Positions 24,479-61,035 of a stretch of DNA of 64,000 nucleotides are shown here, piece after piece. The notes under the pieces are model-generated. The model was not told the DNA's origin, searched no databases, and saw nothing but the letters and a program-made list of their open reading frames with translations. The stretch covers positions 13,748 to 77,747 of the forward strand of contig JAGCDH010000015.1 of NCBI GenBank assembly GCA_017651165.1, read 5' to 3'. Each line of letters starts with the position of its first letter. Position 1 is the stretch's first letter. The position numbers and the translations under genes are program-made. Source of the DNA: Bacilli bacterium (GTDB lineage: Bacteria; Bacillota_I; Bacilli_A; RFN20; CAG-826).

Positions 24479-25264
24479 TTATGACACTATTAAACCATAA
24501 ATATACATATGCTTCATAAAAAATGGCACCCGTGTGTAAATGGGTGCCAATATCTTATATAGAGGCGAACTATTGCGTTTTTTGTTTAAAGTGAAATGAT
24601 AATAATCAAATAGGAGTGAATCGCTACTAATGGCTACACCACCAGAAGTGAATGGATCTGAACTATCTACGAGTTCTTTTCTAGGGAAAGCATAGTAGAT
24701 ATCATCTTCAACATAATAACCACATATATACTTTTCATTTGTGGGTGCTTGTACCACTACATAGTTATTATCTGTCTTAGATGTATTAACTCTTTCATCT
24801 AGAGATGAATATTGTCTTACATTAACCGTGCCATCTAGATAATAACTAGTTAATCCTAATAGATAAGGCACTAGTTCTTTATTATCTTCTTCATACCTGG
24901 CATTAGGTACTGAATAGTAATAGAAGTTAGTACCACTTCCAGAAGCAGAGATATATAACTCAAAGGTATTATCGTTTGTTTTATTATCTACCCAGTTCAC
25001 TGCATAGATCTTATTAACACTATCATCAATACCTAGATCTTCTAATCCCGCTTTGACTATTAGTTTAAAGACATTGTCTAAATCACTAGTGATATATCTT
25101 TCTGTATACGAAGTAGAAGAACCACTACTAGTTCTAGAAGAACATTTCTTTAAACCAAATAACACAAACAACAAGAGGATGATAATAAAAAGAAGTGTAC
25201 AAATAACACTAATAAAGGCTACCTTAAAAGTATATTTCTTCTTCCCCTTACCTTCTTCACTCAT
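24479..25264 (-). CDS. membrane-anchored protein of unknown function (paralog B of 32856..33581)
   Basis: Charged N-terminus, a single TM (ISVICTLLFIIILLLFVLFGLKKC), Tyr-rich ectodomain. Collinear similarity to the 241-aa ORF (DNVFKLIVK / DEVFKGIVK; LVPYLLGL / FVPYLLSL). Confidence 0.55.
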   Translation of the reverse strand: MSEEGKGKKKYTFKVAFISVICTLLFIIILLLFVLFGLKKCSSRTSSGSSTSYTERYITSDLDNVFKLIVKAGLEDLGIDDSVNKIYAVNWVDNKTNDNTFELYISASGSGTNFYYYSVPNARYEEDNKELVPYLLGLTSYYLDGTVNVRQYSSLDERVNTSKTDNNYVVVQAPTNEKYICGYYVEDDIYYAFPRKELVDSSDPFTSGGVAISSDSLLFDYYHFTLNKKRNSSPLYKILAPIYTRVPFFMKHMYIYGLIVS

Positions 25265-25346
25265 AGTGTAATTCTAATAAATTAGACCCCACAAATAAAG
25301 CCCTAATATCGGCGAGCATCGCACACATAGTAGCAATGCGAGCCAT
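25257..25346 (-). repeat. hairpin/mini-ORF element, full copy A (38-nt core 25309-25346; mini-ORF MARIATMCAMLADIRALFVGSNLLELHYE)
   Basis: Minus strand ATGGCTCGCATTGC-TACTATGTGT-GCGATGCTCGCCGA. The arms pair as GGC/GCC plus GCAUUGC/GCGAUGC. The mini-ORF stop TGA overlaps the paralog B start (ATGAGTGA). Confidence 0.5.
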
Positions 25347-25433
25347 GTGCCATTTCATCTGCTTTATTATAAAGCACAACAAGCAATTTGTCATTTTCGT
25401 TCATAAATGCAAAGTGTCTTTTAAGCATTAGTT

Positions 25434-26009
25434 TTATTGTATTCCTTCTAAAAAGTCTCTAACAGCTAAATCAAAAACACTTTTTAGCTCTTCACCATAC
25501 AATTCCGGTAAATATAACAGCGAATCATATTTCCCGCTATATTTATGATGCATAACAGCATATGAAAAAGCATACGCATCTAATTCGCAATCTTGTTTAA
25601 AATATTTGATGTTTTCATTTCCGTCCTTATCTAAAGACTTGATATAGTTCTCCCCTTCTACAATCCATCTTTTTATATATTCTTCACCAATTTCCGATTT
25701 GCCATCTTTATACAAAACTATCTGAATGTGCTGATAGATGTGCCTTATTTCATGAAGTATAAAATATTCAATTTCATATACTTTATTGCATTTAAAAGCG
25801 GCATCGACAAAAGCTAAATTAATAGACAAAACATTGGTTATTCTGTTGACTGTTGCAGTAATTGAAACATTATCATCCCAAGCAAAACACCACTTGATTG
25901 GTTCATCGATGTCTGTATAAATTTGGTTAGATTCAATAAGTAACTTGATTAGTGGACTATATACTTCTATCAAACGCTTAAAATGATCTTTATTCGTGCT
26001 GATACTCAT
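25434..26009 (-). CDS. HExxH zinc metallopeptidase-like protein (ImmA/IrrE-like)
   Basis: FILHEIRHIYQH plus downstream ELDAYAFSYAV (E..A..FA third-ligand block of COG2856-type peptidases). ATG at 26009 lies 4 nt after the NACHT gene stop; the track start at 26168 overlaps that gene. Confidence 0.5.
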   Translation of the reverse strand: MSISTNKDHFKRLIEVYSPLIKLLIESNQIYTDIDEPIKWCFAWDDNVSITATVNRITNVLSINLAFVDAAFKCNKVYEIEYFILHEIRHIYQHIQIVLYKDGKSEIGEEYIKRWIVEGENYIKSLDKDGNENIKYFKQDCELDAYAFSYAVMHHKYSGKYDSLLYLPELYGEELKSVFDLAVRDFLEGIQ

Positions 26010-26013
26010 AAAA

Positions 26014-29000
26014 TTAAAGCAATTGAAAGTATATTGAAACAATTGATGCTTTAGAAAAATGAATGCTAGACAAATTATCAAGCAATTCTTGGTATTTTTG
26101 CTTAAGAGCGTTGTTAGATTTAATCGTCTCTCGATATTCAAAGTACAATTCACAAACAAAAGTTTCAAGAATAGTTTTTGATTCTCTTAGTTTGTTAAGC
26201 TCATCGTCATTAATTAAACTTTTAACAAAACTATTAATAACTTCTAAAACTTCCGGCATCAAAGAATCGGATGGGTATGTTAAAATCTTACGGAGAATGG
26301 CATTTAAGCAAATAGGATTATTAAGTTTGTATAAAGCAATCAATTTATGCTTTTGGAAAACATTCAAAGATAGATTGCTTCTTTTCTTAGAAGAACCATA
26401 ATTATTTTTTATAAATGCCATTCCTAATTTAATTTCATTATTAATATCAAGTTCTTTAATGCTTTCGAATGAAGCCAATTCAAAATCTATTACCTTAAAT
26501 AAGTATTCTTTGGCATCATCAGAAGCAAATAATAATGATTCCAATTCACACAGAGCGCGATTAATTGTTTCAAACACCGCTCTGCAATATTTGTGTGTGC
26601 TAATATACGAAAAAAGGAATTCAATAGTTTTTGTGGCAGAAGGATAATCTGCGAATAACGGTTTGCTTATATGCACCGCAAGATTGCTTTTAGAAAAGCT
26701 GAGTGGTCTTCTTTGATCCTCAATCATCATTTTATCAAATAAGGCTCCCACCATTTTAAGCCCTTCACCAAGCCTGCAGTTTTGGACTGTCAAAAACAAC
26801 TCACAAGCCTTTTCTAAATAATACGGATCACACTTTTTAAAATCCAATGAATCAATATGAAACTTTTTATTATTAAATAAACAAGCTTCTATAATTATTT
26901 GTTTTTTCTCTTCCTCTTTACTTTTTAAAGACTCAAACTGTTCTTGAGAAAACAACTTATTTGGATTGTTACCAAAAATCTCATAATGAACAGTCGAACA
27001 ACCTATCAAAGCATTGAGGCAACTGTTTCTAAGTTCTTCATCTACTGCTAGAAATCCTACTATGTAAGGAGCTTGTTGCGCTGTGTCTATATCGTTAATT
27101 GAACTAGTCAGCACCTTGAAAGCATATCTCTTAATCCAATCTCTTTGTTGCTCGGAAATATCGAACTTGATTTGCCCTACCAAAGCCAAAATAAGGGAAT
27201 TATCAAAAACAAATACCCTATCAGCGTCAATGCCGTTCATCCATATTTCGCAATGCTTATTTCTTTCATCATAAGTGATCGTTTTATCAATAATGATGAC
27301 AGATATAGAATATACAAGCCACCTTGAGAAAACGGTCATTTCGTTTGTAGGCAACGACAAGATATAGTCAACAAGAGCTTTTGCTCGTTCAATGTCTCTG
27401 CGGTGCAAGATTTCAGCCACTTCATTTTCGATATATTTACTTCTGTCAATATAGTTTTCTTTCTTTTGAATTTGTTCTTTTCTTTCGGCCAACATTTGCT
27501 TTGGACTTTTGATACTGCCGTCGTATCCTTCGTAGTAAGTTGTAATTCGCTTGTCTTTTTTATATTTGGAATAAATGATAGAAAACTTTTCTTTATAAAC
27601 ATTTTGATCATAGTTATCAACAAAGAAAAGATTGTATAAGGATGAGCCCAAATCTAATTTGCGTCTCAAGTCATACTTTTTCTTATAAGGAACTCCCAGG
27701 GAAGCAAAAATATGGTTCTCAAAAAATTGCTTGTTTGAATCTACCTCGTTTTCTTCGTGAAAAAGTATTATATCGTTAATTACTATTTCATACGAATTAG
27801 CTAATGCAAAAATGCCATCAGGATAATAACAAAACAAATAATAATCGATAAAAGATAATAGCGAAAGAGAAGCAACAGTAGCCGAATTCTTAACACATAT
27901 TTCATATATTCGTTTAACAACCGCCTTACATAGTTCTTTGTTCGAAGCGCTATTTTTTAAAAGTTTTTCTGTTTCAAGTTTTGCAACATAAAACATATCC
28001 GAGATGAAAGTTGAACTAGACAATTCTGACTCGCCCAAAGAAAACAAATCACTATGAAAAACAAATGATTTGTTTATTCCGTTAGCTAAAGTAACTTCTA
28101 TCTTACTGGCGTTTTCTTTTGTAAGAAGATTGCCCCCAGCAAAATCCGCAAGTTTAAACAGATAACACAAAGCAAGAGAAAAATTGGATCTTATTAAAGT
28201 GATGAAAAAATTAGAAACAAGAGGATAATAACGATAATCAAGTTCGTCAGATAAACTATGAGCTCCTTCAGAAAAACCAAAGCGATCTTTAAATCTGGTA
28301 TCAAAACCATCATAATGCGGAAAAATAGTCGCTCCGGTTTTTTTATTTGGATTAAGCGTGAAAAACTTATATGAAATATCTGTCATAAAAGAAGCAAAAT
28401 CTTCCGAATAAACTATTTGTTCGTTGAGAGAATCTTCGATATGGTATTTTAATAGACTTATCAAAATCCTCTTTCCGTCTTCGTAAAAATTATAGAGGTA
28501 TTTTTCAAGGATGCCGTTCATGAGAGGGATAAACCATTTAACAGAATGTTGCTGAATATAAAAAGGGACAGTCATTAAAACATCTATCAAATCAAAATCA
28601 ATCCATTCCTCATTGATTAACAGATTAAATACTTCTTCTGTGATATCACTGATATGTTTGGAAGCTACTGAGATATATGTCTTTTGCTGAATTAAGCCAT
28701 TTAAAAGACCAATAACATCTGCCAAATTAATCTTTCCGTGGCGAATCAAATCTAAAGGAAGATTTTCTAATAGTGCCAATCTACCAGCACCTATCGGTTT
28801 AAAAACAAAGTCCGAATTGCGCTTTGCTGCTTCGAACGCATATTCGTTACATATTTCGATAAAAGTTGAATAATCAATGTCGTTATACTTTGCGAGGAAA
28901 CTAATAAATGCTTGGCAATTATCCGAAATCAATATGCCAGCAACTGTGCTCTTGAAATATCTCTCGCGATGACACCCAATGAGTATTTCAGCGACAGCAT

Positions 29001-30585
29001 CATAATTCATTTCGTAGATTAAATCGCCAATCCAAATCTGATATCTCCTAAAGCCGCTTTCGCCATATTTGATGATGCCATCTAAAAACGAGTCAACGCT
29101 TTCTTTGTTTTTAAAGTCATCGGATAAATATTGGCAAAAACATATATCTTCAAAAAGATCGTATTTCATCCTTATTCCATACTTTTCATTTTTTAAAACG
29201 ACGCCGTTGTTAATAAGGATGCTTAAAACCTTTTCATCAACAAGAGATTCGTCAATTCCTAGTTTTCTTTCTTTAGACCTCTCAATAACAATGTCTTTGA
29301 CTGTTTTTATCAATAGGTGTCTATTATCTATTTTCTTCTCTGAAAGACAAATACATTTGTCATAAATCACCCTTTTAAGTTCGGCAACGCTGGTAATATT
29401 ACTATCAATAGAATTCTTAACAATAATATCAACGTATAAAGGTGTCGTAACAACCTCGGAAAAGCTTTTTCCAAGTTTCTTCAAAACAGGAAACTCTTTG
29501 AGCAAGATATTCTTTTCTTCTGTTGAAAGGTTGTCTATGGCAACAGAACATAGGTCTTTTTCGTATTTTAAAAAGAGGTTTTGAAAATGAAGATAATCAC
29601 GTGTCCTACAGGTGACAAAGATTTTTAAATTATCGTACTCTCTGGTTAATAGTAGTAATTCGTCGATAGTTTTATCTTTGCCGAGATAATCTGACACAAA
29701 TTCCAGAGAATCAATACAAAATGTCACTATTTTATTTTTTGTATAATTCAACAATTTTCTTAAATCTATTGACCAAAGATCGTTAATGTTTTTTGCATTA
29801 ATCACTTCTTCTGCTCTGGCAAACAAAAGAATCTCACTATCTTTTATTACTTCCTTGCAAATGGCAGACTTACCAGAACCGGCATCACCTTTGATAACAA
29901 TTATCTTTGATTTACTGCCGCGAATTGTTTTAATTGTTGCTGATCTATCCAAATGAAACCCGTTATTGCCGATTGTTGTGAATATGTCATCCAAAAAGCA
30001 TCCTTTTGATTTTTTTACGGCATTAATTAATTTCGCGCTTATATCACCGACACTAACCGCTTCTTCATAAAGATATTCATATACTCTATTCCTAAACGTT
30101 TTATCATATCTTGATTTTTTTATGACGTCACTCAAAAACACAATATCGCTTTCAGGATTAAATTCGATTCCGTCTATATTTTCTTTAGAAAGCGATTTGA
30201 TATCAGCCATATTAAGAAGAAAGAAAGTAATCCTTTTTATGTCTTTGACATCTTTGTCTTCCTTTTTCCTCAATTCTTTAAATGATTTCAAAGTACTCGT
30301 TATTTTAGCCTTTGAATATTTGGTAACACTCACTTGTATAAACACGTCACCATCTCTGGACTTTAAATCAACGCATTTCCATCCGGGTTTGATAGCATTT
30401 AAATTGCAAAAATCTTGATTGTAATATGCCTCACATATTTCTTTTGCAAAATCCTCAAAAAGAATAGCTTCATCAATTAAACCCGCCGATATGCTTGCAT
30501 TAACTACATTTGTATAGTTTTCAATTCTGTCCTTGATGAAATCTATTTGTTTTTTGATAGGTGTTTTATCCATAATTGCTTTCAT
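26014..30585 (-). CDS. NACHT/STAND-class NTPase, 1523 aa, with N-terminal effector-like domain and long helical C-terminal region
   Basis: Walker A IKGDAGSGKSA, Walker B IVTFCIDSLEF (hhhhDxhDE-like), sensor-1-like IFVTCRTRDY. N-terminal CVDLKSRDGDVFIQVSVTK is a possible Mrr/PD-(D/E)xK-like core. About 1100 aa of helical repeats follow. Confidence 0.6.
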   Translation of the reverse strand: MKAIMDKTPIKKQIDFIKDRIENYTNVVNASISAGLIDEAILFEDFAKEICEAYYNQDFCNLNAIKPGWKCVDLKSRDGDVFIQVSVTKYSKAKITSTLKSFKELRKKEDKDVKDIKRITFFLLNMADIKSLSKENIDGIEFNPESDIVFLSDVIKKSRYDKTFRNRVYEYLYEEAVSVGDISAKLINAVKKSKGCFLDDIFTTIGNNGFHLDRSATIKTIRGSKSKIIVIKGDAGSGKSAICKEVIKDSEILLFARAEEVINAKNINDLWSIDLRKLLNYTKNKIVTFCIDSLEFVSDYLGKDKTIDELLLLTREYDNLKIFVTCRTRDYLHFQNLFLKYEKDLCSVAIDNLSTEEKNILLKEFPVLKKLGKSFSEVVTTPLYVDIIVKNSIDSNITSVAELKRVIYDKCICLSEKKIDNRHLLIKTVKDIVIERSKERKLGIDESLVDEKVLSILINNGVVLKNEKYGIRMKYDLFEDICFCQYLSDDFKNKESVDSFLDGIIKYGESGFRRYQIWIGDLIYEMNYDAVAEILIGCHRERYFKSTVAGILISDNCQAFISFLAKYNDIDYSTFIEICNEYAFEAAKRNSDFVFKPIGAGRLALLENLPLDLIRHGKINLADVIGLLNGLIQQKTYISVASKHISDITEEVFNLLINEEWIDFDLIDVLMTVPFYIQQHSVKWFIPLMNGILEKYLYNFYEDGKRILISLLKYHIEDSLNEQIVYSEDFASFMTDISYKFFTLNPNKKTGATIFPHYDGFDTRFKDRFGFSEGAHSLSDELDYRYYPLVSNFFITLIRSNFSLALCYLFKLADFAGGNLLTKENASKIEVTLANGINKSFVFHSDLFSLGESELSSSTFISDMFYVAKLETEKLLKNSASNKELCKAVVKRIYEICVKNSATVASLSLLSFIDYYLFCYYPDGIFALANSYEIVINDIILFHEENEVDSNKQFFENHIFASLGVPYKKKYDLRRKLDLGSSLYNLFFVDNYDQNVYKEKFSIIYSKYKKDKRITTYYEGYDGSIKSPKQMLAERKEQIQKKENYIDRSKYIENEVAEILHRRDIERAKALVDYILSLPTNEMTVFSRWLVYSISVIIIDKTITYDERNKHCEIWMNGIDADRVFVFDNSLILALVGQIKFDISEQQRDWIKRYAFKVLTSSINDIDTAQQAPYIVGFLAVDEELRNSCLNALIGCSTVHYEIFGNNPNKLFSQEQFESLKSKEEEKKQIIIEACLFNNKKFHIDSLDFKKCDPYYLEKACELFLTVQNCRLGEGLKMVGALFDKMMIEDQRRPLSFSKSNLAVHISKPLFADYPSATKTIEFLFSYISTHKYCRAVFETINRALCELESLLFASDDAKEYLFKVIDFELASFESIKELDINNEIKLGMAFIKNNYGSSKKRSNLSLNVFQKHKLIALYKLNNPICLNAILRKILTYPSDSLMPEVLEVINSFVKSLINDDELNKLRESKTILETFVCELYFEYRETIKSNNALKQKYQELLDNLSSIHFSKASIVSIYFQLL

Positions 30586-30639
30586 ACTTATATTATGCGA
30601 TATCTAAAGGAACGATGGAATTAGTTTGAAAATCTAGGC

Positions 30640-30670
30640 AAAAAAAGATGATGCCAATAAAAGCATCATC
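30640..30670 (-). terminator. rho-independent terminator between rfbB and the NACHT gene
   Basis: Minus strand GATGATGC-TTTTATTG-GCATCATC followed by TTTTTTTG. Confidence 0.7.
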
Positions 30671-30702
30671 GGTATTGTTTCATCTTCTGTTAAATTCTAG
30701 AC

Positions 30703-30719
30703 AGTAATGCGAGCCATGT
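30703..30719 (-). repeat. hairpin/mini-ORF element, truncated copy B (left arm only)
   Basis: Minus strand ACATGGCTCGCATTACT. It shares the first ~16 nt with copies A and C and then diverges (MARITV-stop). Confidence 0.45.
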
Positions 30720-30728
30720 ACTATTTTG

Positions 30729-31757
30729 CTATTTCCTGTTATCGTAGTTCTTCTTTAGCCATTCGGCGTTTTGTGCCATACATTCATTGAGCCAAGTAGA
30801 ACCTTTATCCGATAAATACCATTCAATGGTTTTCTTAATGCCAACTTCAAAAGTGGTAATTGGATCCCAACCTAATTCTTTATTAGCTTTCGCAGGATCA
30901 ATCGCATATCTTTGGTCGTGTCCATGTCTATCCGCGACAAATTCAATTAATGATACTGGTTTATTCAGTTCAGAAAGAATGCGTTTAACAATATACAAGT
31001 TATTTCTTTCGTTATGACCACCTAAGTTATATACTTCCCCTACTTTGCCTCTTTCTAATACCGCAAGGATACCTCTACAGTGGTCTTCAACATATAACCA
31101 GTCTCTAACATTAATGCCTTGACCGTAAACAGGTAGTTTTTGATCATGGTTAGCTTTATATATCATTAAAGGTATTAGTTTTTCTGGGAATTGATATGGG
31201 CCATAGTTATTAGAACATCTAGAGATAGTAACTGGTAGACCATAGGTACGGTAGTACGCTAATACTAATAGGTCCGCACTAGCTTTAGATGTGCTATATG
31301 GGCTAGATGTATGTAATGGAGTATCTTCGTGGAAGAATAAGTCTGGTCTATCTAATGGTAAATCACCATATACTTCATCAGTAGATACTTGATGATATCT
31401 TTCAATGCCGTATTTCCTACACGCATCCATTAAAACTTCTGTACCAATAATATTAGTGGTTAAGAAACTTTCTGGATCTAAGATAGATCTATCAACATGA
31501 GATTCTGCTGCAAAGTTAACAACAATATTTGGTTTTTCTTCTTCAAATATCTTATTAATTGCTTCTCTATCTCTAATATCAGTCTTATAGAACTTATAGT
31601 TAGGATTATTTAATTCTTCTTTGATAGTATTAGGATTAGCGGCATATGTTAAAGAATCAACATTCACCACTTTCCAGTCTTTTCTTTCATTTAATAATAA
31701 TTTGCAGAAGCAGTTACCAATAAAACCCGCTCCACCTGTCACTAATATTGTTTTCAT
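30729..31757 (-). CDS. rfbB: dTDP-glucose 4,6-dehydratase
   Basis: ILVTGGAGFIGNCF Rossmann motif, STDEVYG, YSTSKASAD (YxxxK); 342 aa. Confidence 0.9.
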   Translation of the reverse strand: MKTILVTGGAGFIGNCFCKLLLNERKDWKVVNVDSLTYAANPNTIKEELNNPNYKFYKTDIRDREAINKIFEEEKPNIVVNFAAESHVDRSILDPESFLTTNIIGTEVLMDACRKYGIERYHQVSTDEVYGDLPLDRPDLFFHEDTPLHTSSPYSTSKASADLLVLAYYRTYGLPVTISRCSNNYGPYQFPEKLIPLMIYKANHDQKLPVYGQGINVRDWLYVEDHCRGILAVLERGKVGEVYNLGGHNERNNLYIVKRILSELNKPVSLIEFVADRHGHDQRYAIDPAKANKELGWDPITTFEVGIKKTIEWYLSDKGSTWLNECMAQNAEWLKKNYDNRK

Positions 31758-31807
31758 ATCATTCTCCTTTCGGCGAGCAATGCATGAATCGATGCAATGC
31801 GAGCCAT
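31754..31807 (-). repeat. hairpin/mini-ORF element, full copy C (38-nt core 31770-31807; mini-ORF MARIASIHALLAERRMI)
   Basis: Minus strand ATGGCTCGCATTGC-ATCGATTCAT-GCATTGCTCGCCGA, directly followed by AAGGAGA. The mini-ORF stop overlaps the rfbB ATG as ATGA. Confidence 0.5.
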
Positions 31808-31814
31808 ATATTGC

Positions 31815-32846
31815 TTAGGTAACCTTCTTTGGTTTAAGTTTCAAAGTGTTGCCAATTATTACCGTCTTCATTATATAAACGTCTAGTTCCTTTTTGCGCG
31901 CAATTTCAATAATTGCGCCCTTGTCATATTCGCTTATCTTTTCGCCTAAATAAACTGCTTTGGGTTTTGCGACCCCTAGTTTAACATAATTATCATTTGC
32001 TCGACCAATGATGGGGTTGTAATTATAGCCAATGAGCCTCCATTCGTTTTCATAATACCACGGAAGTTTCTTTCTATAATATGCGTTTTGAATAAAATGA
32101 ATTGTCTCTTTTTCGTTATAGTTTTTAAGAGATTGCTCAAGAGGAAAAACAATTGGATTGTATCCTCCATCGGCATCAATCTTCTCCAAAACCGCATCTA
32201 TGTAATTATTGCACAAATCCGTAACATTGTATTTATCGTTTTGATAAATAACAGGTAGTAATGGATCATGAATGATGTCTTTATTGAAAGAATAGCCTTT
32301 AATGACATCTAGTTCCGAAACAATATCAAAGATAGATTCTTGATGCTCGATGCCTATTCTTCTTAAGGTACTGTAGTCATATTCAAGAACAAATCCAGTT
32401 GCCAATCCTGCATAATGTGCCCACATTATTTCTTGGTTAACATCAGTGGAAAAGCAAGCAAATGCATACACATTATTGCCAAATTGAATGTCTGGGGCCA
32501 AATCTCTCTCATAAATACAATTAACAAGTTCGTTTATTTGGCTACAATGTAAATTGTTTTGCTTTAATAATCTCTTTAAGAATTTATTATTCTTAACAAG
32601 ACTGCTTTTGATATGTTTTTTAATCTGTCTTTCAGAAAATCTAACAGCAGCATCGTATGGATCGTTAAACGCTACTGGGCAAGTTGCATATATCTCATCT
32701 TTTATGAATTGATTGATTGTGTGCTTATTAATTGGTCTATATCGGTATAGGGAAAACTTGTCATTATTGATAGCAATATTGACCTCTGTTTCTTTTTCCG
32801 TCCTAATTACTTTGACAGTGTAGTTTTTATTTTTCGCTATTTTCAT
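31815..32846 (-). CDS. DUF2971-family protein
   Basis: LYRYRPINKHTINQFIKDEIYATCPVAFNDPYD matches the DUF2971 N-terminal hallmark (Y.Y....l..l....l.f..p..fNDP.D). The start lies 9 nt after the paralog A stop. Confidence 0.55.
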   Translation of the reverse strand: MKIAKNKNYTVKVIRTEKETEVNIAINNDKFSLYRYRPINKHTINQFIKDEIYATCPVAFNDPYDAAVRFSERQIKKHIKSSLVKNNKFLKRLLKQNNLHCSQINELVNCIYERDLAPDIQFGNNVYAFACFSTDVNQEIMWAHYAGLATGFVLEYDYSTLRRIGIEHQESIFDIVSELDVIKGYSFNKDIIHDPLLPVIYQNDKYNVTDLCNNYIDAVLEKIDADGGYNPIVFPLEQSLKNYNEKETIHFIQNAYYRKKLPWYYENEWRLIGYNYNPIIGRANDNYVKLGVAKPKAVYLGEKISEYDKGAIIEIARKKELDVYIMKTVIIGNTLKLKPKKVT

Positions 32847-32855
32847 AGTCTACTT

Positions 32856-33581
32856 CTAATCCATCAGTTTTTGAAAATATCCATAAAGCGGACTATCTAA
32901 TCCAATAACTTGATTAGATGTCTCACTAAATGGATTACTAATCAATATTTTATTTTGATAAATATAATATTCGTTATTTTGATAATAAAAGCCAGAGAAA
33001 TATTTATCAGTGCCACTCATATTGCTGCTTATTAGATATCTACATTCTTTATCAGTAGTTATTGTTTCTGACGTTGGTAAATATGTATCAAGGGATATAG
33101 TTCCTTCATCTAAAGATAATTTAGTATCTAAATCTAAAGATAATAAATATGGAACAAAATTATCAAAGCCACTATAAGGATAATTGCTTAATCTATAATA
33201 ATAGACTTTAGATTCACTTCTAACTTCAATATTAAGATCAAATGATGTAGAAATATCACTATATGTTACTGATACCACATCCGTTAATATATCTTCATCA
33301 AATCCATCCACAACCAATTGATTCTTAACAATACCTTTAAATACCTCATCTATCTTATTAACACCATAATCATACTTTATAGAGGAACTATTACTAGATT
33401 GAGGGTCACTACTATTGTTATTACATTTCTTTAAACCAAGAAGAACAAGTAATAAAAGGATAACAATAAAAAGAAGAGTACCAATAACAGAAGCAATAAC
33501 TATTTTTAAGTCACGTTTCGCTTGTTTTTTCTTCTGCTCCTTATTATCTTGTTCCAACTCTTTTTTCTCTTTGTTTAACAT
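32856..33581 (-). CDS. membrane-anchored protein of unknown function (paralog A of 24479..25264)
   Basis: Lys/Glu-rich N-terminus, a single TM (IASVIGTLLFIVILLLLVLLGLKKC), Ser-rich linker, Tyr-rich ectodomain. Confidence 0.55.
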   Translation of the reverse strand: MLNKEKKELEQDNKEQKKKQAKRDLKIVIASVIGTLLFIVILLLLVLLGLKKCNNNSSDPQSSNSSSIKYDYGVNKIDEVFKGIVKNQLVVDGFDEDILTDVVSVTYSDISTSFDLNIEVRSESKVYYYRLSNYPYSGFDNFVPYLLSLDLDTKLSLDEGTISLDTYLPTSETITTDKECRYLISSNMSGTDKYFSGFYYQNNEYYIYQNKILISNPFSETSNQVIGLDSPLYGYFQKLMD

Positions 33582-36931: not shown

Positions 36932-37603
36932 TTAAATAGTTTTCACAAACTTTCTTAAATCGGCAGTAATACCGCCATGACCATTTTTACCATGTCTATA
37001 TCTTTCAGGTAATAACTGTCTTAGATTCTTAATGTTGTTCTCCAGAGAATTTGATTGATATCCATCGACAGTGCAGCTCTTAAAATTATATGTTTTTAAA
37101 AACTTATGATGACCTATGCAATTCCTTAATTCTTTAACTGCTTGTAAGTTCTCGTTGGTGCCCACTCCACCAAATAGTTCGTCTTTATCCGACCGCGGTA
37201 ATGCTTGCACTTGTTGAATCAATGTTCCTAAATCTGTATCTTGAAGAATTTCAAATAATGGCTTTCCTTTAGTAATATTATCTTTAATGCTATTGTGGTT
37301 GCCTTTCCCGTTAATCCAGAACGATTGATTCAGATCATTTTCATATTTATTGGATATATAGGCTCTTATATATTCTTCTAATGTCGCTAGATAAATATAT
37401 AAAGTATCCCTTAATCCTTTATCTAAGCGTAGTTCGTCTGATATTTGTTTCCAGATTATTGCTTGGTTATTGTTCTCTTTTAAAAGATAATCATAAATCT
37501 CTTTATGAAGAGATAAACCCTTTACTTTAATGTAAAAAAGCGCGTCATCGCGCTCCTCATTACTATTGAATATTATTTTAGATAAGAATTGTTCTTTGGT
37601 CAT
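36932..37603 (-). CDS. Abi_2 (AbiD/AbiF-like) HEPN-domain protein
   Basis: LRLDKGLRDTLYIYLATLEEYIRAYISN and ELRNCIGHHKFL (Rx4H) fit the Abi_2 family pattern. The start overlaps the upstream stop as ATGA. Confidence 0.55.
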   Translation of the reverse strand: MTKEQFLSKIIFNSNEERDDALFYIKVKGLSLHKEIYDYLLKENNNQAIIWKQISDELRLDKGLRDTLYIYLATLEEYIRAYISNKYENDLNQSFWINGKGNHNSIKDNITKGKPLFEILQDTDLGTLIQQVQALPRSDKDELFGGVGTNENLQAVKELRNCIGHHKFLKTYNFKSCTVDGYQSNSLENNIKNLRQLLPERYRHGKNGHGGITADLRKFVKTI

Positions 37604-38241
37604 TTTGGTTGGTATTTATTATAGAAGTTATTCACTCCTTCATAGAATATATCAATTGTTGGAATTCTATTATTTTCGTGTTTTTTCTTTTCTTCTATGA
37701 TACGTGGTATCACAAACTCTTCAAGTAGTTCTCTTTGAGCGTTGCCACATAGATTATTAAATCTTTGATAAATATATGTATTCTTACTAGGTAGTTCAAC
37801 CCAAGTATATTGGTCTTTTCCGTTTCTTCTGATTCTTAGTGATTCAGTATGATCGATAATGACAAAATCAAAAGAGAACTTTTCTAAATCTGCATCAAAC
37901 TTATTATTGCTTTTAGAACATCTAACGGTCACCACTGTTGTGGAATCTTCCACCTTCTCATTCTTATTAGCGCATTCAGTGAAAGCACACAAAAATGCTT
38001 TCTTAATATCAGTGGGTTTAAGACTACCTTTGCAGTTATGTGTTAACACTATTTGGTAATCTAAATCATATTTACCATTACTATCTTGGATAACACATCT
38101 ACGTTTTTGAGAACCAATTAGTTTGATATTGAACTTATATAGCTTATGAATCTTCTTATGCTTTCTTACATCATGTATCAATTTATTCGCTCTAGCACGA
38201 GCTTCACGATATGAGTTGTAAGGAAGAAGTATGGGGATCAT
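37600..38241 (-). CDS. minimal nucleotidyltransferase-fold protein (MNT/SMODS-like)
   Basis: LIGSQKRRCVIQDSNGKYDLDYQIVL (GS...DxD) with a later acidic strand FSFDFVIID; 213 aa. Confidence 0.5.
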   Translation of the reverse strand: MIPILLPYNSYREARARANKLIHDVRKHKKIHKLYKFNIKLIGSQKRRCVIQDSNGKYDLDYQIVLTHNCKGSLKPTDIKKAFLCAFTECANKNEKVEDSTTVVTVRCSKSNNKFDADLEKFSFDFVIIDHTESLRIRRNGKDQYTWVELPSKNTYIYQRFNNLCGNAQRELLEEFVIPRIIEEKKKHENNRIPTIDIFYEGVNNFYNKYQPK

Positions 38242-49295: not shown

Positions 49296-50312
49296 CTAAT
49301 GTAGATCAGATTCAACCATCATTTTAACTAATTCTTCAAAAGATGTCTTGTTTGGATTCCAACCCAGGACGCTTTTAGCTTTTGTGGGATTTCCCCATAA
49401 GTTAACAACATCGGTTGGCCGATAATATTTAGGCGATACACAAACTAGCATTCTTCCAGTTGCCTTGTCATAGCCTTTTTCATCAACACCATTCCCTCGC
49501 CACTCAATTTCGATTCCAGCATAATGAAAAGCCAATGTGCAAAACTCTCTTACGGTATGTTGAACCCCTGTGGCAATAACAAAATCATCAGGGTCGTTTT
49601 GTTGAAGCATTAACCACATACACTCAACATAATCTTTCGCGTATCCCCAGTCTCGCAAAGAATCCAAATTTCCCAATTCTAAGTGTTCTTGCTCCCCCTT
49701 TTTGATTTTGTTAATTGCCAAAGTAATTTTTCGAGTGACAAAATGTTCTCCGCGTCTAGGAGATTCATGATTAAAAAGGATACCATTAACAGCAAAGATG
49801 TCATACGCCTCTCTATATTCCTTACAAATCCAATAGCCATATTGTTTGGCAACAGCATAAGGGCTGTAAGGATGAAATGGGGTGGTTTCGCTTTGCGGTA
49901 CCTCTTCAACTTTACCAAATAGTTCAGAGGTTGATGCTTGATATAATTTTGTCTTTTTCTCAAGCCGCAATATTCTAATTGCTTCCAATAGCCTTAAAAC
50001 CCCAATAGCGTCGACATCTCCTGTATATTCTGGCACATCAAACGAAGTGCCCACATGAGATTGAGCAGCAAGATTATATATTTCGTCTGGTTGGATTTCG
50101 CCGATAAGTCTAATCAAACAGGAAGAGTCGGTTAAATCTCCGTCATGAATTGTAATTGATCCATTTGCCAATAAGTGATCTATTTTGGAAGTATTTGAAA
50201 CAGAAGACCTCCTAACAATCCCATGAACCTCATAATCCTTTTCTAGTAAAAATTCTGCTAAATAAGAACCATCTTGGCCATTAATGCCAGTAATTAACGC
50301 TTTCTTTTTCAT
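49296..50312 (-). CDS. gmd: GDP-mannose 4,6-dehydratase
   Basis: [26 protein letters not shown] (YxxxK), NHESPRRG. The track start at 50342 is TTG, so ATG at 50312 with an AAGGAG upstream was chosen. Confidence 0.9.
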
Positions 50313-50355
50313 GTGACAAAAATGTCTCCTTTCACAGCGCAATGCATATAATAAA

Positions 50356-58497: not shown

Positions 58498-59031
58498 TTA
58501 TTTGTTGATGATGTTTGTAATGATATTGATTCCGATACCGGATGTGACTAGTCGACCGCAGAAAACATGGGCCACTGTCACTTTTCTTTTGTGTAAGTTG
58601 ACTTTGATGATTTGCGTTTCAAGTCCTGCTAAAGGACCATCTAACACTCTAATCATTTCTCCTTCTCTCACTTCGATGTTTGATATTTCAGTGATACGGT
58701 CGTTGTTTCTAGAGTAAAGGATATCGATCATTCTTGATTCGTCTTTATTAAGTGGGACAAAGTTATTCGTGTCTGCTTCTCGTCCGAGGAGTTTGGTGAA
58801 TCCTGGTGTCCAATAAAGCTGTTCAAATAGACCTTTAACATTATCGGTCTCGACAAAGACATAACCAGGGAAGCATCTTTCAATGACTTCTTTTTCGATA
58901 CCTTTGTATTTACGGATACTTTTTCTATGAGGAGCGAACACATCAAAATTAGGATCATCGGGTTTATTTTTTAGGATATCCTCGATGGCCTGTTGTTCTT
59001 TACCAGTTTTGACTTGAATGACGTAATACAT
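58498..59031 (-). CDS. loaP: specialised NusG paralog (LoaP-like processive antiterminator)
   Basis: NGN domain MYYVIQVKTGKEQ...CFPGYVFVETD; KOW GEMIRVLDGPLAGLETQIIKV. 177 aa, first gene of the polysaccharide locus. Confidence 0.8.
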   Translation of the reverse strand: MYYVIQVKTGKEQQAIEDILKNKPDDPNFDVFAPHRKSIRKYKGIEKEVIERCFPGYVFVETDNVKGLFEQLYWTPGFTKLLGREADTNNFVPLNKDESRMIDILYSRNNDRITEISNIEVREGEMIRVLDGPLAGLETQIIKVNLHKRKVTVAHVFCGRLVTSGIGINIITNIINK

Positions 59032-59498: not shown

Positions 59499-60416
59499 TT
59501 ATAGACTATGCAGTTTTAAGAAAGATAAGAGCTCTTCTAATGATGAACGACAAGCCTCATACGAGCATTGCTCATATAAGAGAGGTTTTGTCAATTTGTT
59601 ATAGTCTTGTTTGAACACTTCTTCATTAACGATGCTGGTTAGAATGGTAGAGAGCACCACTCCTTCTTTAGCGGATAAGCAAATAGGACTGCTCTTGCGG
59701 TATTCTTTCACCTGTTTAAACAAATCACACACTGATTCATCGAGATTTATGACTGTCAAAATCTTTGTGATGTCATAAAGGTGACGAGAATGTTTTTGGC
59801 ATTTGTTTGAAAGATAGTAATCGCAAATCGCAAATGTCTTGTCCACTAGTGTCCTTGCTAAAGACTGGGTTTTGACAATAAATGGCTCTAGTTCATATTT
59901 CATAGTGAGATCATGCCTTCCAGTCTTATCAAAGTATTCGCCAATGAATGATTGAACTTGTTTTTCTTCACAAGGAAATGATGGTGTTTGCGCCGCTAGT
60001 TCCACGATCACTTTCTTTTCAATTTTATTGTCTTCAAAGATTGAGGGATAAGGACACTCAAATCGATTAAAATAACCCGTTCTTTTAAGTCTTTCTGAAT
60101 TCACTAATGCAAAATTAAGGGCCTTGATAGAGCGGGAAATACCTTTGAACTTCTTGCCCTTTAAATTAGAATCAATTTCTACAAAAGGTTCTTCATAGGA
60201 AATATCAATGTCTTCTGAAAAGCGTTTTATAAGGCGATGACATTTGGAAAGTGATGTCCCACCTTTAAACACATATTCTTGGTCTTGATGAAAAATTTCT
60301 TTCAGTAGCAAAACAATCCAATAGTCTTTTTCGACATATTCTCTTAAAATCTTGTTCTCTTTTTCTACTGCTTCGATGGCTGTTTTGAATAACTCTTGGT
60401 CGCTATCTAAACGCAT
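59499..60416 (-). CDS. abiEii: AbiEii/AbiGii-family nucleotidyltransferase toxin (type IV TA)
   Basis: FKGGTSLSKCHRLIKRFSEDIDISY hallmark; overlaps the upstream gene by 14 nt. Confidence 0.8.
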   Translation of the reverse strand: MRLDSDQELFKTAIEAVEKENKILREYVEKDYWIVLLLKEIFHQDQEYVFKGGTSLSKCHRLIKRFSEDIDISYEEPFVEIDSNLKGKKFKGISRSIKALNFALVNSERLKRTGYFNRFECPYPSIFEDNKIEKKVIVELAAQTPSFPCEEKQVQSFIGEYFDKTGRHDLTMKYELEPFIVKTQSLARTLVDKTFAICDYYLSNKCQKHSRHLYDITKILTVINLDESVCDLFKQVKEYRKSSPICLSAKEGVVLSTILTSIVNEEVFKQDYNKLTKPLLYEQCSYEACRSSLEELLSFLKLHSL

Positions 60417-61035
60417 TAATTAATCCTCCTTCGACAATGAGCTTCAGCGTACGTGTGCTGTACAAGCCAATGTAGTTTTCGAAGTCGGACTTTACTAAAT
60501 TCTGTTGAATGTACTTAAAAAGAAGGTCGTGGTGTTTTTTGACGTCATCAGCATCAAGCAAATAAAAGGCATCAAAAAATTGTAATGCTTTGTAATTAAA
60601 CCTATCGATTTTAATTTTCCCTTTTCTTAGCAAAGCTTTAAAACCACTACAGGCGAAATATCTTTTGCAGCTTGTGTTATTAGTAGTAATCTCTAACACC
60701 GCTGGAACCTGTTGTGATAATCCGATTTTGTTCAAAAATGTTTGGCCAGTATAGTAGCCGTAGGTATTCAAATCAAGGCCAGGGAAACCATAATCATCTC
60801 TGATAAATTTCTTTTCCACTATTTTTTCAAACGAAAGCACACTTGGAGTTCCAAGAAGTGTCTCTTCAGAAAGATAGTAGATGCCTTTGGACTCTCTAAC
60901 TAGTTGCCCTTTTTCGACAGCACGAGAAAGTTCTTTTCTAACAGCAGCTTTGCTCTTTCCTCCTATGCGAATGTCTTTTAGGAAGATGGGTACTGAATAA
61001 CCATAGATTTCTTTTAAGTAATCAACAACTTTCAT
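60403..61035 (-). CDS. abiEi: AbiEi-like antitoxin / transcriptional regulator (wHTH)
   Basis: N-terminal wHTH-like AAVRKELSRAVEKGQLVRESKGIYYL, plus its position and overlap with abiEii. Confidence 0.65.
   Translation of the reverse strand: MKVVDYLKEIYGYSVPIFLKDIRIGGKSKAAVRKELSRAVEKGQLVRESKGIYYLSEETLLGTPSVLSFEKIVEKKFIRDDYGFPGLDLNTYGYYTGQTFLNKIGLSQQVPAVLEITTNNTSCKRYFACSGFKALLRKGKIKIDRFNYKALQFFDAFYLLDADDVKKHHDLLFKYIQQNLVKSDFENYIGLYSTRTLKLIVEGGLINAFR

Follow-up and report, generated by a model that had tools for sequence, protein, structure and literature searches.

A junction repeat confined to one genus and mostly fused to a truncated ugd gene: a probable mark of joining and swapping between sugar-synthesis and anti-phage modules

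Results

A short GC-rich repeat, here called E, is confined to one genus and lies at gene junctions, in most cases fused to a 5′-truncated ugd (ugd′, the last ~64 codons of ugd), and it probably marks the places at which sugar-synthesis and anti-phage modules were joined and swapped. Its distribution, sharp edges, mosaic copies and arrays are observed directly in the copies collected. The starting point was a window of 64,000 nucleotides from the genome of a Bacilli bacterium (contig JAGCDH010000015.1), where the original prediction had seen, among other options, a recombination scar or site delimiting cassette-like units. This idea is supported, since in relatives E lies at the joints of modules that have nothing in common, and homology between loci breaks off abruptly at the borders of E.

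The window holds three copies, all on the minus strand. Copy A (25309-25356) and copy C (31770-31817) each consist of a full 38-nt core (25346-25309 and 31807-31770, respectively) and the left linker, 10 nt long in copy A, and the two core sequences are exactly those first reported. Copy B (30703-30726) has the left linker and left arm only (ATGGCTCGCATTAC) and is broken in the element centre; the arm alone, with one mismatch, lies at 30719-30703 as predicted. Copies A and C are 79% identical over 38 nt, far above chance, and A and B share a longer left part (24 nt, 88% identity). An exact 14-mer is found twice, and a search allowing three mismatches gave 5 matches against 3.3 expected, which is uninformative by itself. 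Regex and model searches of the whole genome (1.14 Mb) gave no copies beyond these three, so the repeat is local, and a genome-wide motif was rejected.

The genes around the copies lie on the same strand. Copy C starts 7 nt past the stop codon of a complete DUF2971 gene (31815-32846), and its right edge merges into the Shine-Dalgarno sequence of rfbB (30729-31757; dTDP-glucose 4,6-dehydratase type), a lone sugar gene within the defence island that is bracketed by copies C and B and whose DNA is ~90% identical to rfbB of four other species in the genus. The homology of rfbB plus E to genome G009 ends within the arm of copy B, and in a single contig of run X3 (n = 1) copy B is followed by other DNA with a right-arm-like ..GCTCTCCGA. 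An intrinsic-terminator-like hairpin with a T-run (30647-30670) lies 33 nt past copy B. The next module, a SMEK-STAND NTPase gene (1523 aa) with a small downstream ORF (25434-30585), is bracketed by the half copy B and copy A, whose common 24 nt form direct repeats around it; relatives of this module (43-45% identity) are also found just past polysaccharide loci, where neither E nor ugd′ is present. Just upstream of copy A is a promoter-like site (ATGACA-17-TATAAT, 25366-25394), identified only by its 11/12 consensus match, and copy A would lie within the 5′ leader of the membrane and AbiH genes provided that this site is used. The first gene past copy A (24479-25264) encodes a 261-aa membrane protein, a paralog of that at 32856-33581. 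The core of copy A is identical from position 2 onward to a copy in metagenome locus L084, where ugd′ comes next, and its right flank (TATTAGGGCTTTATTTG...) resembles an 'E + TAGATATAGG + terminator' class minus the stem. At the head of the polysaccharide locus stands a NusG-family gene (177 aa, 58498-59031).

A search of relatives, as the original prediction had proposed, yielded further copies in species of the same genus. E is present in 7 of the 23 genus genomes and missing from the other 16 species (model search), and together with low-GC metagenome contigs this gave a collection of 34 copies. Genomes with E carry 1-3 copies, and every copy in the genus genomes lies in one locus, formed by the far end of the polysaccharide gene cluster and the adjoining defence island. 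E was absent from 47 other genera sampled in the family (model search), was not found in 400 genomes of the order (exact-pattern search) and had no match in phage and plasmid collections. The genes flanked by the 34 copies have STAND, YobI, CBASS-like, Abi, phosphonate and rhamnose functions.

E is ~48 nt long and comprises a 10-nt A-rich linker followed by an imperfect dyad of 38-42 nt, which begins (A/G)TGGCTCGC... and ends ...CTCGCCGA; (G/A)TAG is often found upstream. It always has the same orientation as the genes, and nearly every copy follows an intact gene whose stop codon is 7-22 nt ahead of it, the left flanks falling into 21 classes among 33 copies. The flanks show no consistent target-site duplications. 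Nucleotide diversity drops from 0.64 upstream to 0.025 in the left arm, rises to 0.285 in the centre, and is 0.069 in the right arm, 0.13 in ugd′ and 0.63 past the ugd′ stop. No other 15-mer of the module is as conserved as the left arm, which is less diverse than every 15-nt window of ugd′, the TC/TC internal loop is invariant between the conserved arms, and the centre, hypervariable in sequence and in length (8-14 nt), lies in the top 2% of diversity. Passive homology does not account for a left arm and a centre of this kind, and the pattern of arm conservation suggests a recognised site.

In 20 of 32 copies E forms the left border of the 5′-truncated ugd, giving a module of ~245 nt (E-ugd′). 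Homology to intact ugd begins ~8 nt past E, and the E|ugd′ junction is identical in all 20 copies, which implies one founding event. E-ugd′ is the commonest context of E and probably the one in which it arose, although E is not derived from ugd. An origin of E as diverged ugd coding sequence was rejected: only one Arg is retained when the proteins are aligned without gaps, a codon-by-codon alignment by eye matches ~9 of 39 nucleotides (random), and the segment that E replaces, FRASSIQG, is conserved in three intact ugd genes. The substitution pattern of the ugd′ remnants (0.124/0.080/0.202, against 0.109/0.077/0.262 in intact ugd) is coding-like and fits repeated exchange with intact ugd; 4 of 16 remnants are frameshifted, and some are decaying. 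E without ugd′ occurs in at least 10 other right-hand contexts, and it also precedes other truncated genes.

Several loci preserve arrangements in which these parts are multiplied or reshuffled. In genome G003, intact ugd and E-ugd′ bracket phosphonate genes, a Campbell-type structure, and in G017 tandem remnants are found in the order E-ugd′′ (frameshifted), a 185-aa gene and E-ugd′. Locus L084 reads E-ugd′-E, and L097 reads rfbB, E, a truncated SPFH-like ORF and E-ugd′; co-oriented arrays of E occur in both of these loci, in G017, in G008 and in the window. The same upstream gene can be followed by different right flanks (L095 versus L096; L091 versus G008), the same flanks can enclose different centres (G008c versus L096), and all four combinations of left type and right-arm type occur. 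In G008, rfbB is joined directly to the next gene with no E between. Six contigs carrying the same rfbB and the contigs assembled from four bovine gut runs all keep the arrangement of the window, with no polymorphic, excised or empty-site form, a comparison confined to assembled contigs, in which rare forms are invisible.

The original prediction had been of a regulatory leader hairpin with a peptide, for which the result was negative. The pairing of the arms can be drawn as claimed, but on the gene strand its folding energy is no better than that of shuffled sequences (z = −0.68 and −0.85). Single-sequence folds of the copies range from z = −2.2 to +0.3 with differing minimum-energy shapes, and most copies fold no better than shuffles. 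A conserved RNA hairpin finds no support from compensatory changes, which in the 34 copies do not exceed shuffled expectation (two-sided change in 1 cell versus 1.6 expected; covariation score 0.094 versus 0.093 in shuffles), and pair counts on a smaller set of 11 copies revealed no covariation either; two of the ten claimed pairs are broken in 15-17 of 28 distinct copies. Rfam gave no match in the window at gathering score, and permissive searches around two E copies returned nothing relevant. E is followed by GAAAAG or GATAG, with no T-run terminator layout on the transcribed strand, and a terminator scan did not report it as an intrinsic terminator. Separate terminator-like sites lie past copy B and past the G008 and L096 copies, and in one flank class a canonical terminator lies 9 nt past E.

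The peptide fares no better, and we consider it very improbable that a translated leader peptide (MARIA...) begins within E and couples translation to the downstream gene. Mini-ORFs of 17 and 29 aa do exist in the window as described, ending in ATGA and ATGAGTGA overlaps with the start codons of rfbB and the 261-aa membrane protein gene; position 1 is ATG or GTG in nearly all copies (CTG in one), and the frame of the 38-nt variants continues into ugd′, that of L097 into the SPFH-like fragment. However, the mini-ORFs lack a Shine-Dalgarno sequence, as the original prediction had already remarked, and are preceded by AAAACAATAG instead, whereas ~55% of long ORFs have one. The ORFs vary from 5 to 99 aa with unrelated tails, that of copy B ends after 6 codons, the reading frame is displaced in variants of 40 and 42 nt, those with a long centre no longer have the MARIA frame, and within E there is no third-position excess of variation. 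The conserved MARIA residues simply reflect the conserved left-arm DNA.

Discussion

Judged against its rivals, the explanation that E and E-ugd′ are recombination joints, providing short portable homology for inserting, duplicating and reassorting modules, has a slightly better than even chance of being right. Circular or incoming DNA with E-ugd′ would integrate at intact ugd via one cross-over, and the product would be intact ugd, cargo and E-ugd′, as in G003. Later exchanges between copies of E or E-ugd′ would reassort, duplicate or delete modules on either side, and in the window the outcome would be rfbB between copies C and B and the STAND module between the broken copy B and copy A. We infer both the order of these events and that the joining was by general homologous recombination, not a dedicated enzyme. 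Pfam scans detected no recombinase or transposase in any E locus, the bracketed genes encoding nothing but defence and sugar enzymes. Of the tyrosine, Y1 and serine families searched for, none is linked to E or follows its distribution: each genome has two Xer-like tyrosine recombinase genes (PF00589) on other contigs, with one extra in G009 and one in G017 and none in E loci; G000 and G008 lack Y1 transposase (PF01797), and G005, a genome without E, has it; and serine recombinase (PF00239) is absent from G000, G001, G008 and G010. E probably does not mimic a Xer/dif site: no site came within 7 mismatches of the Bacillus subtilis dif, and E is GC-rich whereas dif is not.

Some observations argue against portable homology. 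It gives no reason for the stop codons of 21 different genes to lie 7-22 nt ahead of E. At 38-48 nt the core offers little length for efficient RecA-dependent exchange, for which only the 245 nt of E-ugd′ comfortably suffice, and neither the six contigs nor the assembled bovine gut contigs showed a polymorphic or excised form.

The conserved arms also invite readings in which E is selected for a function of its own. One candidate is a signal acting in cis within the long polysaccharide operon, either between cistrons or where the operon ends. It would be recognised as RNA or as single-stranded DNA, for instance by an RNA-binding protein or by the NusG paralog at the head of the locus, and its flanks would vary only through gene turnover around a selected element in a compact genome with deletion bias. 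Arms conserved above the neighbouring ugd′ around a centre free to vary, the constant co-orientation and placement 7-22 nt past stop codons, the terminator 9 nt past E in one flank class, and the A-rich tracts on both sides, through which the opposite strand reads as a hairpin plus CUAUUGUUUU, would all suit such a signal. We nevertheless regard it as unlikely: covariation is lacking, most copies fold no better than shuffles, Rfam has no match, the terminator scan passed over E, the operon start, which is the usual place of such recruitment sites, has no copy, and 16 of 23 species of the genus do without it. Still less probable is a miniature attC-like site, a folded hairpin whose stem boxes and 2x2 internal loop are conserved and whose terminal loop varies, acted on by an unlinked recombinase so that 'gene + E' units are true mobile cassettes. 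The conserved arms, the invariant TC/TC loop, the 8-14-nt centre of varying length, the position directly past stop codons of many unrelated genes, and the co-oriented arrays in a single locus point in this direction, and 5′-truncated genes to the right of E are expected from secondary-site use. Against it, the loci and their surroundings contain neither an integron integrase nor any other recombinase, no such gene tracks the presence of E, the GTTRRRY / RYYYAAC core is absent, genomes carry only 1-3 copies, rfbB of G008 is joined to the next gene without E, and the break in copy B is not what a clean site-specific exchange would give. An integrase-independent attC analogue, a folded hairpin of 38-42 nt at which a housekeeping or still unrecognised enzyme captures 'gene + E' behind stop codons, has a slim chance; the cassettes would be polysaccharide-decoration and anti-phage genes of a small-genome, Bacilli-type lineage of the ruminant gut, in which integrons are not known.

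The reverse possibility is that E has no role, being a passive scar from one old deletion that fused foreign DNA to ugd, with later copies as chance-carried duplications. The shared E|ugd′ junction with its single founding event, the restriction to one genus and one locus, and the decay of some remnants are as expected of a scar, but a left arm less diverse than any remnant window beside a hypervariable centre, and E without ugd′ in at least 10 right-hand contexts after 21 different genes, make this improbable. If E and E-ugd′ are truly exchange handles, a gut bacterium with a reduced genome renews its surface sugars and phage defences at one hot spot, without mobile-element machinery, and searching rumen metagenomes for E would be an inexpensive way to new cassettes for defence and sugar decoration.

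Known systems resemble E in part. Like the sites of integrons and CALINs, E is an imperfect hairpin-like sequence with conserved ends and a variable middle, found directly past stop codons of promoter-less or co-oriented genes (directly 3′ of the ORF, as attC is in a cassette), arrayed in a single locus and homogeneous within the lineage. Unlike attC, it is only 38-42 nt long without R′′/R′ cores, shows no GTT/AAC pair at the edges in 34 copies, occurs 1-3 times per genome in genomes without any IntI, and delimits modules that can hold several genes with their own promoters. REPs, which stabilise mRNA 3′ ends and act as recombination hot spots, are likewise GC-rich, imperfect, orientation-specific palindromes of ~35-40 nt, intergenic and just past stop codons, but they occur genome-wide in tens to hundreds of copies with a RAYT gene, whereas E keeps to a single locus and is not tracked by Y1 transposase genes. 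The att sites of integrase-driven islands share with E the direct repeats around cargo (B/A around the STAND module; ugd/ugd′ around the G003 phosphonate genes), although the E-bracketed DNA has no recombinase inside. Campbell-type insertion-duplication by a single cross-over, known from islands inserted at 3′ gene ends, leaves an intact gene, cargo and a 5′-truncated copy of the gene's 3′ end, as in G003 and in the tandem remnants of G017, and the E-linked remnants stay similar to the intact gene; in contrast, E loci have no integrase, E also occurs alone, after many genes and before other truncated genes, and its arms are conserved beyond the neutral level. Finally, capsule and O-antigen loci have gene remnants and short repeats at their borders, and flank-mediated swapping by homologous recombination is the accepted mechanism there. 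E resembles these borders in its place, where a variable polysaccharide locus ends on its far side and a sugar-nucleotide gene remnant lies, and differs in being sharp to the nucleotide, repeated inside the adjoining defence island, and conserved above the adjoining remnant.

Copies of the junction element and their surroundings

The original prediction described three copies, A, B and C, of a junction element (hereafter E; 38–42 nt, with a left arm, a variable centre and a right arm), and we confirm their sequences and positions on the minus strand. Copy A (25346–25309) reads ATGGCTCGCATTGC-TACTATGTGT-GCGATGCTCGCCGA and copy C (31807–31770) reads ATGGCTCGCATTGC-ATCGATTCAT-GCATTGCTCGCCGA, while copy B (30719–30703) consists of ATGGCTCGCATTAC followed by unrelated DNA. 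All genes of the region lie on the minus strand, along which a polysaccharide locus comes first (a NusG-family gene at the head, 58498–59031, then a sugar transferase, glycosyltransferases, an amino-sugar pathway and manC), followed by a defence island and finally by serC-serA. The island comprises, in order, a GHKL ATPase, a pair of small nucleotidyltransferase and Abi_2, a Schlafen-type helicase, FRG, a membrane protein with DUF2971, copy C, rfbB, copy B, SMEK-STAND (1523 aa) with a small ORF, copy A, a paralogous membrane protein with AbiH, and an AAA_21 pair. This polysaccharide/defence region contains no recombinase or transposase genes.

Copy C lies behind the DUF2971 gene in the usual manner and abuts the rfbB ribosome-binding site, a junction (DUF2971-E-rfbB) not seen in any other genome. 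Copy B has the rfbB-E configuration common elsewhere (genomes G001 and G009, four metagenome loci), except that the element is interrupted in its centre; a terminator-like hairpin follows; in one bovine gut run, a contig diverges at this break point into other DNA with a right-arm-like GCTCTCCGA. Copy A is a full element, 87 nt past the small ORF and behind a strong promoter-like site. Its core is found again in locus L084, there preceding a 5′-truncated 3′ end of ugd (ugd′), and its right flank resembles a terminator class (TAGATATAGG plus hairpin) minus the stem. Copies A and B have 24 nt in common at 88% identity, extending 7 nt further left. Six contigs from different samples show an identical arrangement, as do contigs assembled from bovine gut runs, and the organism's own assembly (1.14 Mb, 26 contigs, 37% G+C, 79% complete) holds no further copies.

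Several neighbouring genes deserve comment. The NusG-family protein (177 aa, minus strand) is a specialised paralog of the LoaP/RfaH kind, and its place at the head suggests that the polysaccharide cluster as a whole is read under processive antitermination. An AbiEi-like/AbiEii toxin-antitoxin pair (59499–61035, minus) is situated upstream of the locus, flanked by the NusG paralog and the gene for undecaprenyl diphosphate synthase. The nucleotidyltransferase and Abi_2 pair (36932–38241, minus) is kept in five genus genomes at 78–91% DNA identity, always downstream of the E region and with all surroundings different (relatives G001, G003, G008 and G009; loci L047, L059, L046 and L049). The genome has two RmlB/GDP-mannose-dehydratase-type genes (30729–31757 and 49296–50342, both minus); the former, the island rfbB, is ~90% identical in DNA across five species, and its contig depth in gut metagenomes is 4–7 times that of its neighbours, so many related organisms share it.

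Distribution and flanks

A strict two-arm pattern gave no matches in 60 relatives or in 400 genomes of the order, and a scan of species-representative genomes returned one real match, G009 (a rumen MAG filed as Erysipelotrichaceae). There, E lies directly 3′ of an rfbB 90% identical to that of the window, and homology between the two genomes extends from the rfbB start into the left arm of E, where it ends. The left arm alone is present in 7 of 23 genus genomes, with no control matches; a sequence model built from 11 copies turned up nothing further in the genus, and nothing in 47 other genera of the family. Metagenomes yielded ~20 more low-GC copies, for a total of 34, including second copies found by the model.

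On the left, 33 copies fall into 21 unrelated flank classes, and in nearly all copies the stop codon of a complete gene, often the TAA of TAAAACA, lies 7–22 nt upstream. These genes include rfbB (seven copies, copy B among them), phosphonate-pathway genes, SDR-cytidylyltransferase and several defence genes. The right flank is ugd′ in 20 of 32 copies, TAGATATAGG plus a terminator hairpin in four and a 5′-truncated SPFH-like ORF in two, the last identified by reading the sequence, without a tool match; the remainder are single cases. The SPFH/band-7-like ORF (...YKINYTLKYKVKDPKEFY...; L097 ~640–935, minus, and L088 3198–3266) provides a second example of E with a truncated gene on its right, and in L097 it is in frame with the ATG of E, giving a 99-aa ORF.

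E is the edge of a truncated-ugd module

In G001, G003, G008, G010, G017 and 13 metagenome loci, the 38 nt of E are followed by AAAGAAAGCCAAAGGTGTTAAAGTTATTATCTATGAACC..., which corresponds to the final ~64 codons of the gene for UDP-glucose 6-dehydrogenase (ugd) through to the stop codon. E is foreign DNA that became joined to the middle of ugd on a single occasion, since in DNA alignments with three intact ugd genes homology starts ~8 nt past E, and the segment that E replaces, encoding FRASSIQGVMKRIK, is conserved in all three yet unlike E. That E might be diverged ugd sequence was considered and rejected; judged by eye, its likeness to the replaced segment is at random level. By tblastn over all contigs, the organism's own genome has no ugd gene or remnant, although in an assembly 79% complete this does not prove loss.

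Across 16 E-ugd′ copies, nucleotide diversity is 0.64 at −40 to −11, 0.28 at −10 to −1 (consensus AAAACAATAG), 0.025 in the left arm, 0.285 in the centre, 0.069 in the right arm, 0.132 in ugd′ and 0.63 beyond its stop; these values set E-ugd′ apart as a discrete ~245-nt module, bounded on either side by unrelated DNA. Variation in ugd′ by codon position (0.124/0.080/0.202) compares with 0.109/0.077/0.262 in the corresponding stretch of intact ugd, and 4 of the 16 remnants are frameshifted. This coding-like variation fits repeated exchange with intact ugd genes.

Hairpin and mini-ORF

E is a real imperfect dyad, as the proposed pairing is formed in 83–87% of cells. The idea of a conserved RNA hairpin is not supported: compensatory changes and covariation score across 34 copies are at the level given by shuffling, base pairing at positions 9 and 10 is lost in 15–17 of 28 distinct copies, single-sequence folds vary in shape between copies and are mostly no better than shuffles, and Rfam has no match for E. 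The original description of the two mini-ORFs, including their overlap with the start codons that follow, is correct. No Shine-Dalgarno sequence precedes the ATG/GTG of E, against ~55% of long ORFs by a crude count; the reading frame changes in variants of 40 and 42 nt, and ORF lengths range from 5 to 99 aa; and third positions within E carry no excess variation. The N-terminal MARIA residues thus reflect conserved DNA, not a conserved peptide, and we consider a leader peptide start highly improbable.

E as a recurring joint

Several loci carry E in arrays. In G003, intact ugd is followed by PEP mutase, decarboxylase and dehydrogenase genes and then E-ugd′, a layout that would be the expected product of a single cross-over between intact ugd and a circle carrying E-ugd′. 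G017 has the same three genes, then a frameshifted E-ugd″, a 185-aa gene and E-ugd′; L084 reads E-ugd′-E, L097 reads rfbB-E-SPFH′-E-ugd′, and G008 has three copies over 16 kb. Parts are also reassorted. G003 and G008 have E-ugd′ and the next gene in common at 95% identity, with homology from the first base of E, and a given upstream gene can be joined to ugd′ in one contig but to the terminator class in a second (L095/L096; L091/G008). The G008c and L096 copies have the same flanks on both sides and different centres, and the left type (G or A at position 1) occurs with the right-arm type (CAACAC or GATGC) in all four possible pairings.

In both G003 and G017 (L059 3839–7996; L062), a phosphonate set (PEP mutase fused to cytidylyltransferase, TPP-dependent decarboxylase, and nucleotidyltransferase fused to Fe-alcohol dehydrogenase) closes the polysaccharide locus just before E-ugd′ and predicts a phosphonate-decorated surface glycan. 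Between two E copies of G008 (L060 703–8912) lies a run of defence genes, which encode a YobI-like ATPase of 1180 aa, a 959-aa SF1 helicase and, CBASS-like, a reverse-oriented nucleotidyltransferase accompanied by a Cap15-type effector.

Together, these observations support the originally proposed recombination scar or site delimiting modules, and sharpen it: E forms the conserved border of a module with truncated ugd, and it recurs as a joint within a hot spot for polysaccharide and defence genes in a single genus. We lean towards the view that the copies are joints which homologous exchange both creates and uses. Every 15-nt window of ugd′ is more diverse than the left arm, while the centre, 8 to 14 nt long, falls in the top 2%. 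A conserved arm with a centre free in sequence and length is the pattern typical of a recognised site whose middle can vary, and it is unexpected under homology-driven homogenisation. An attC-like site is nevertheless rather unlikely, as no candidate enzyme was found: the tyrosine recombinases comprise two Xer-like genes per genome, both located on other contigs, plus one extra gene in G009 and one in G017, and the presence of Y1 transposases and serine recombinases does not track E. A passive scar, slightly less probable again, is not expected to leave the least diverse sequence beside a hypervariable one. The 21 different genes ending just before E may have been captured at a site, or genes may have turned over around an element under selection in a genome with strong deletion pressure; a cis-acting operon signal with genes turning over around it is the likeliest of the alternatives to homologous exchange, if still improbable. 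Beyond E itself, distant relatives of SMEK-STAND (43–45% identity; L107, L109 and L110) are encoded directly downstream of polysaccharide loci in other organisms, with no E present, and in this group the end of the polysaccharide locus may more generally be a hot spot for defence genes.
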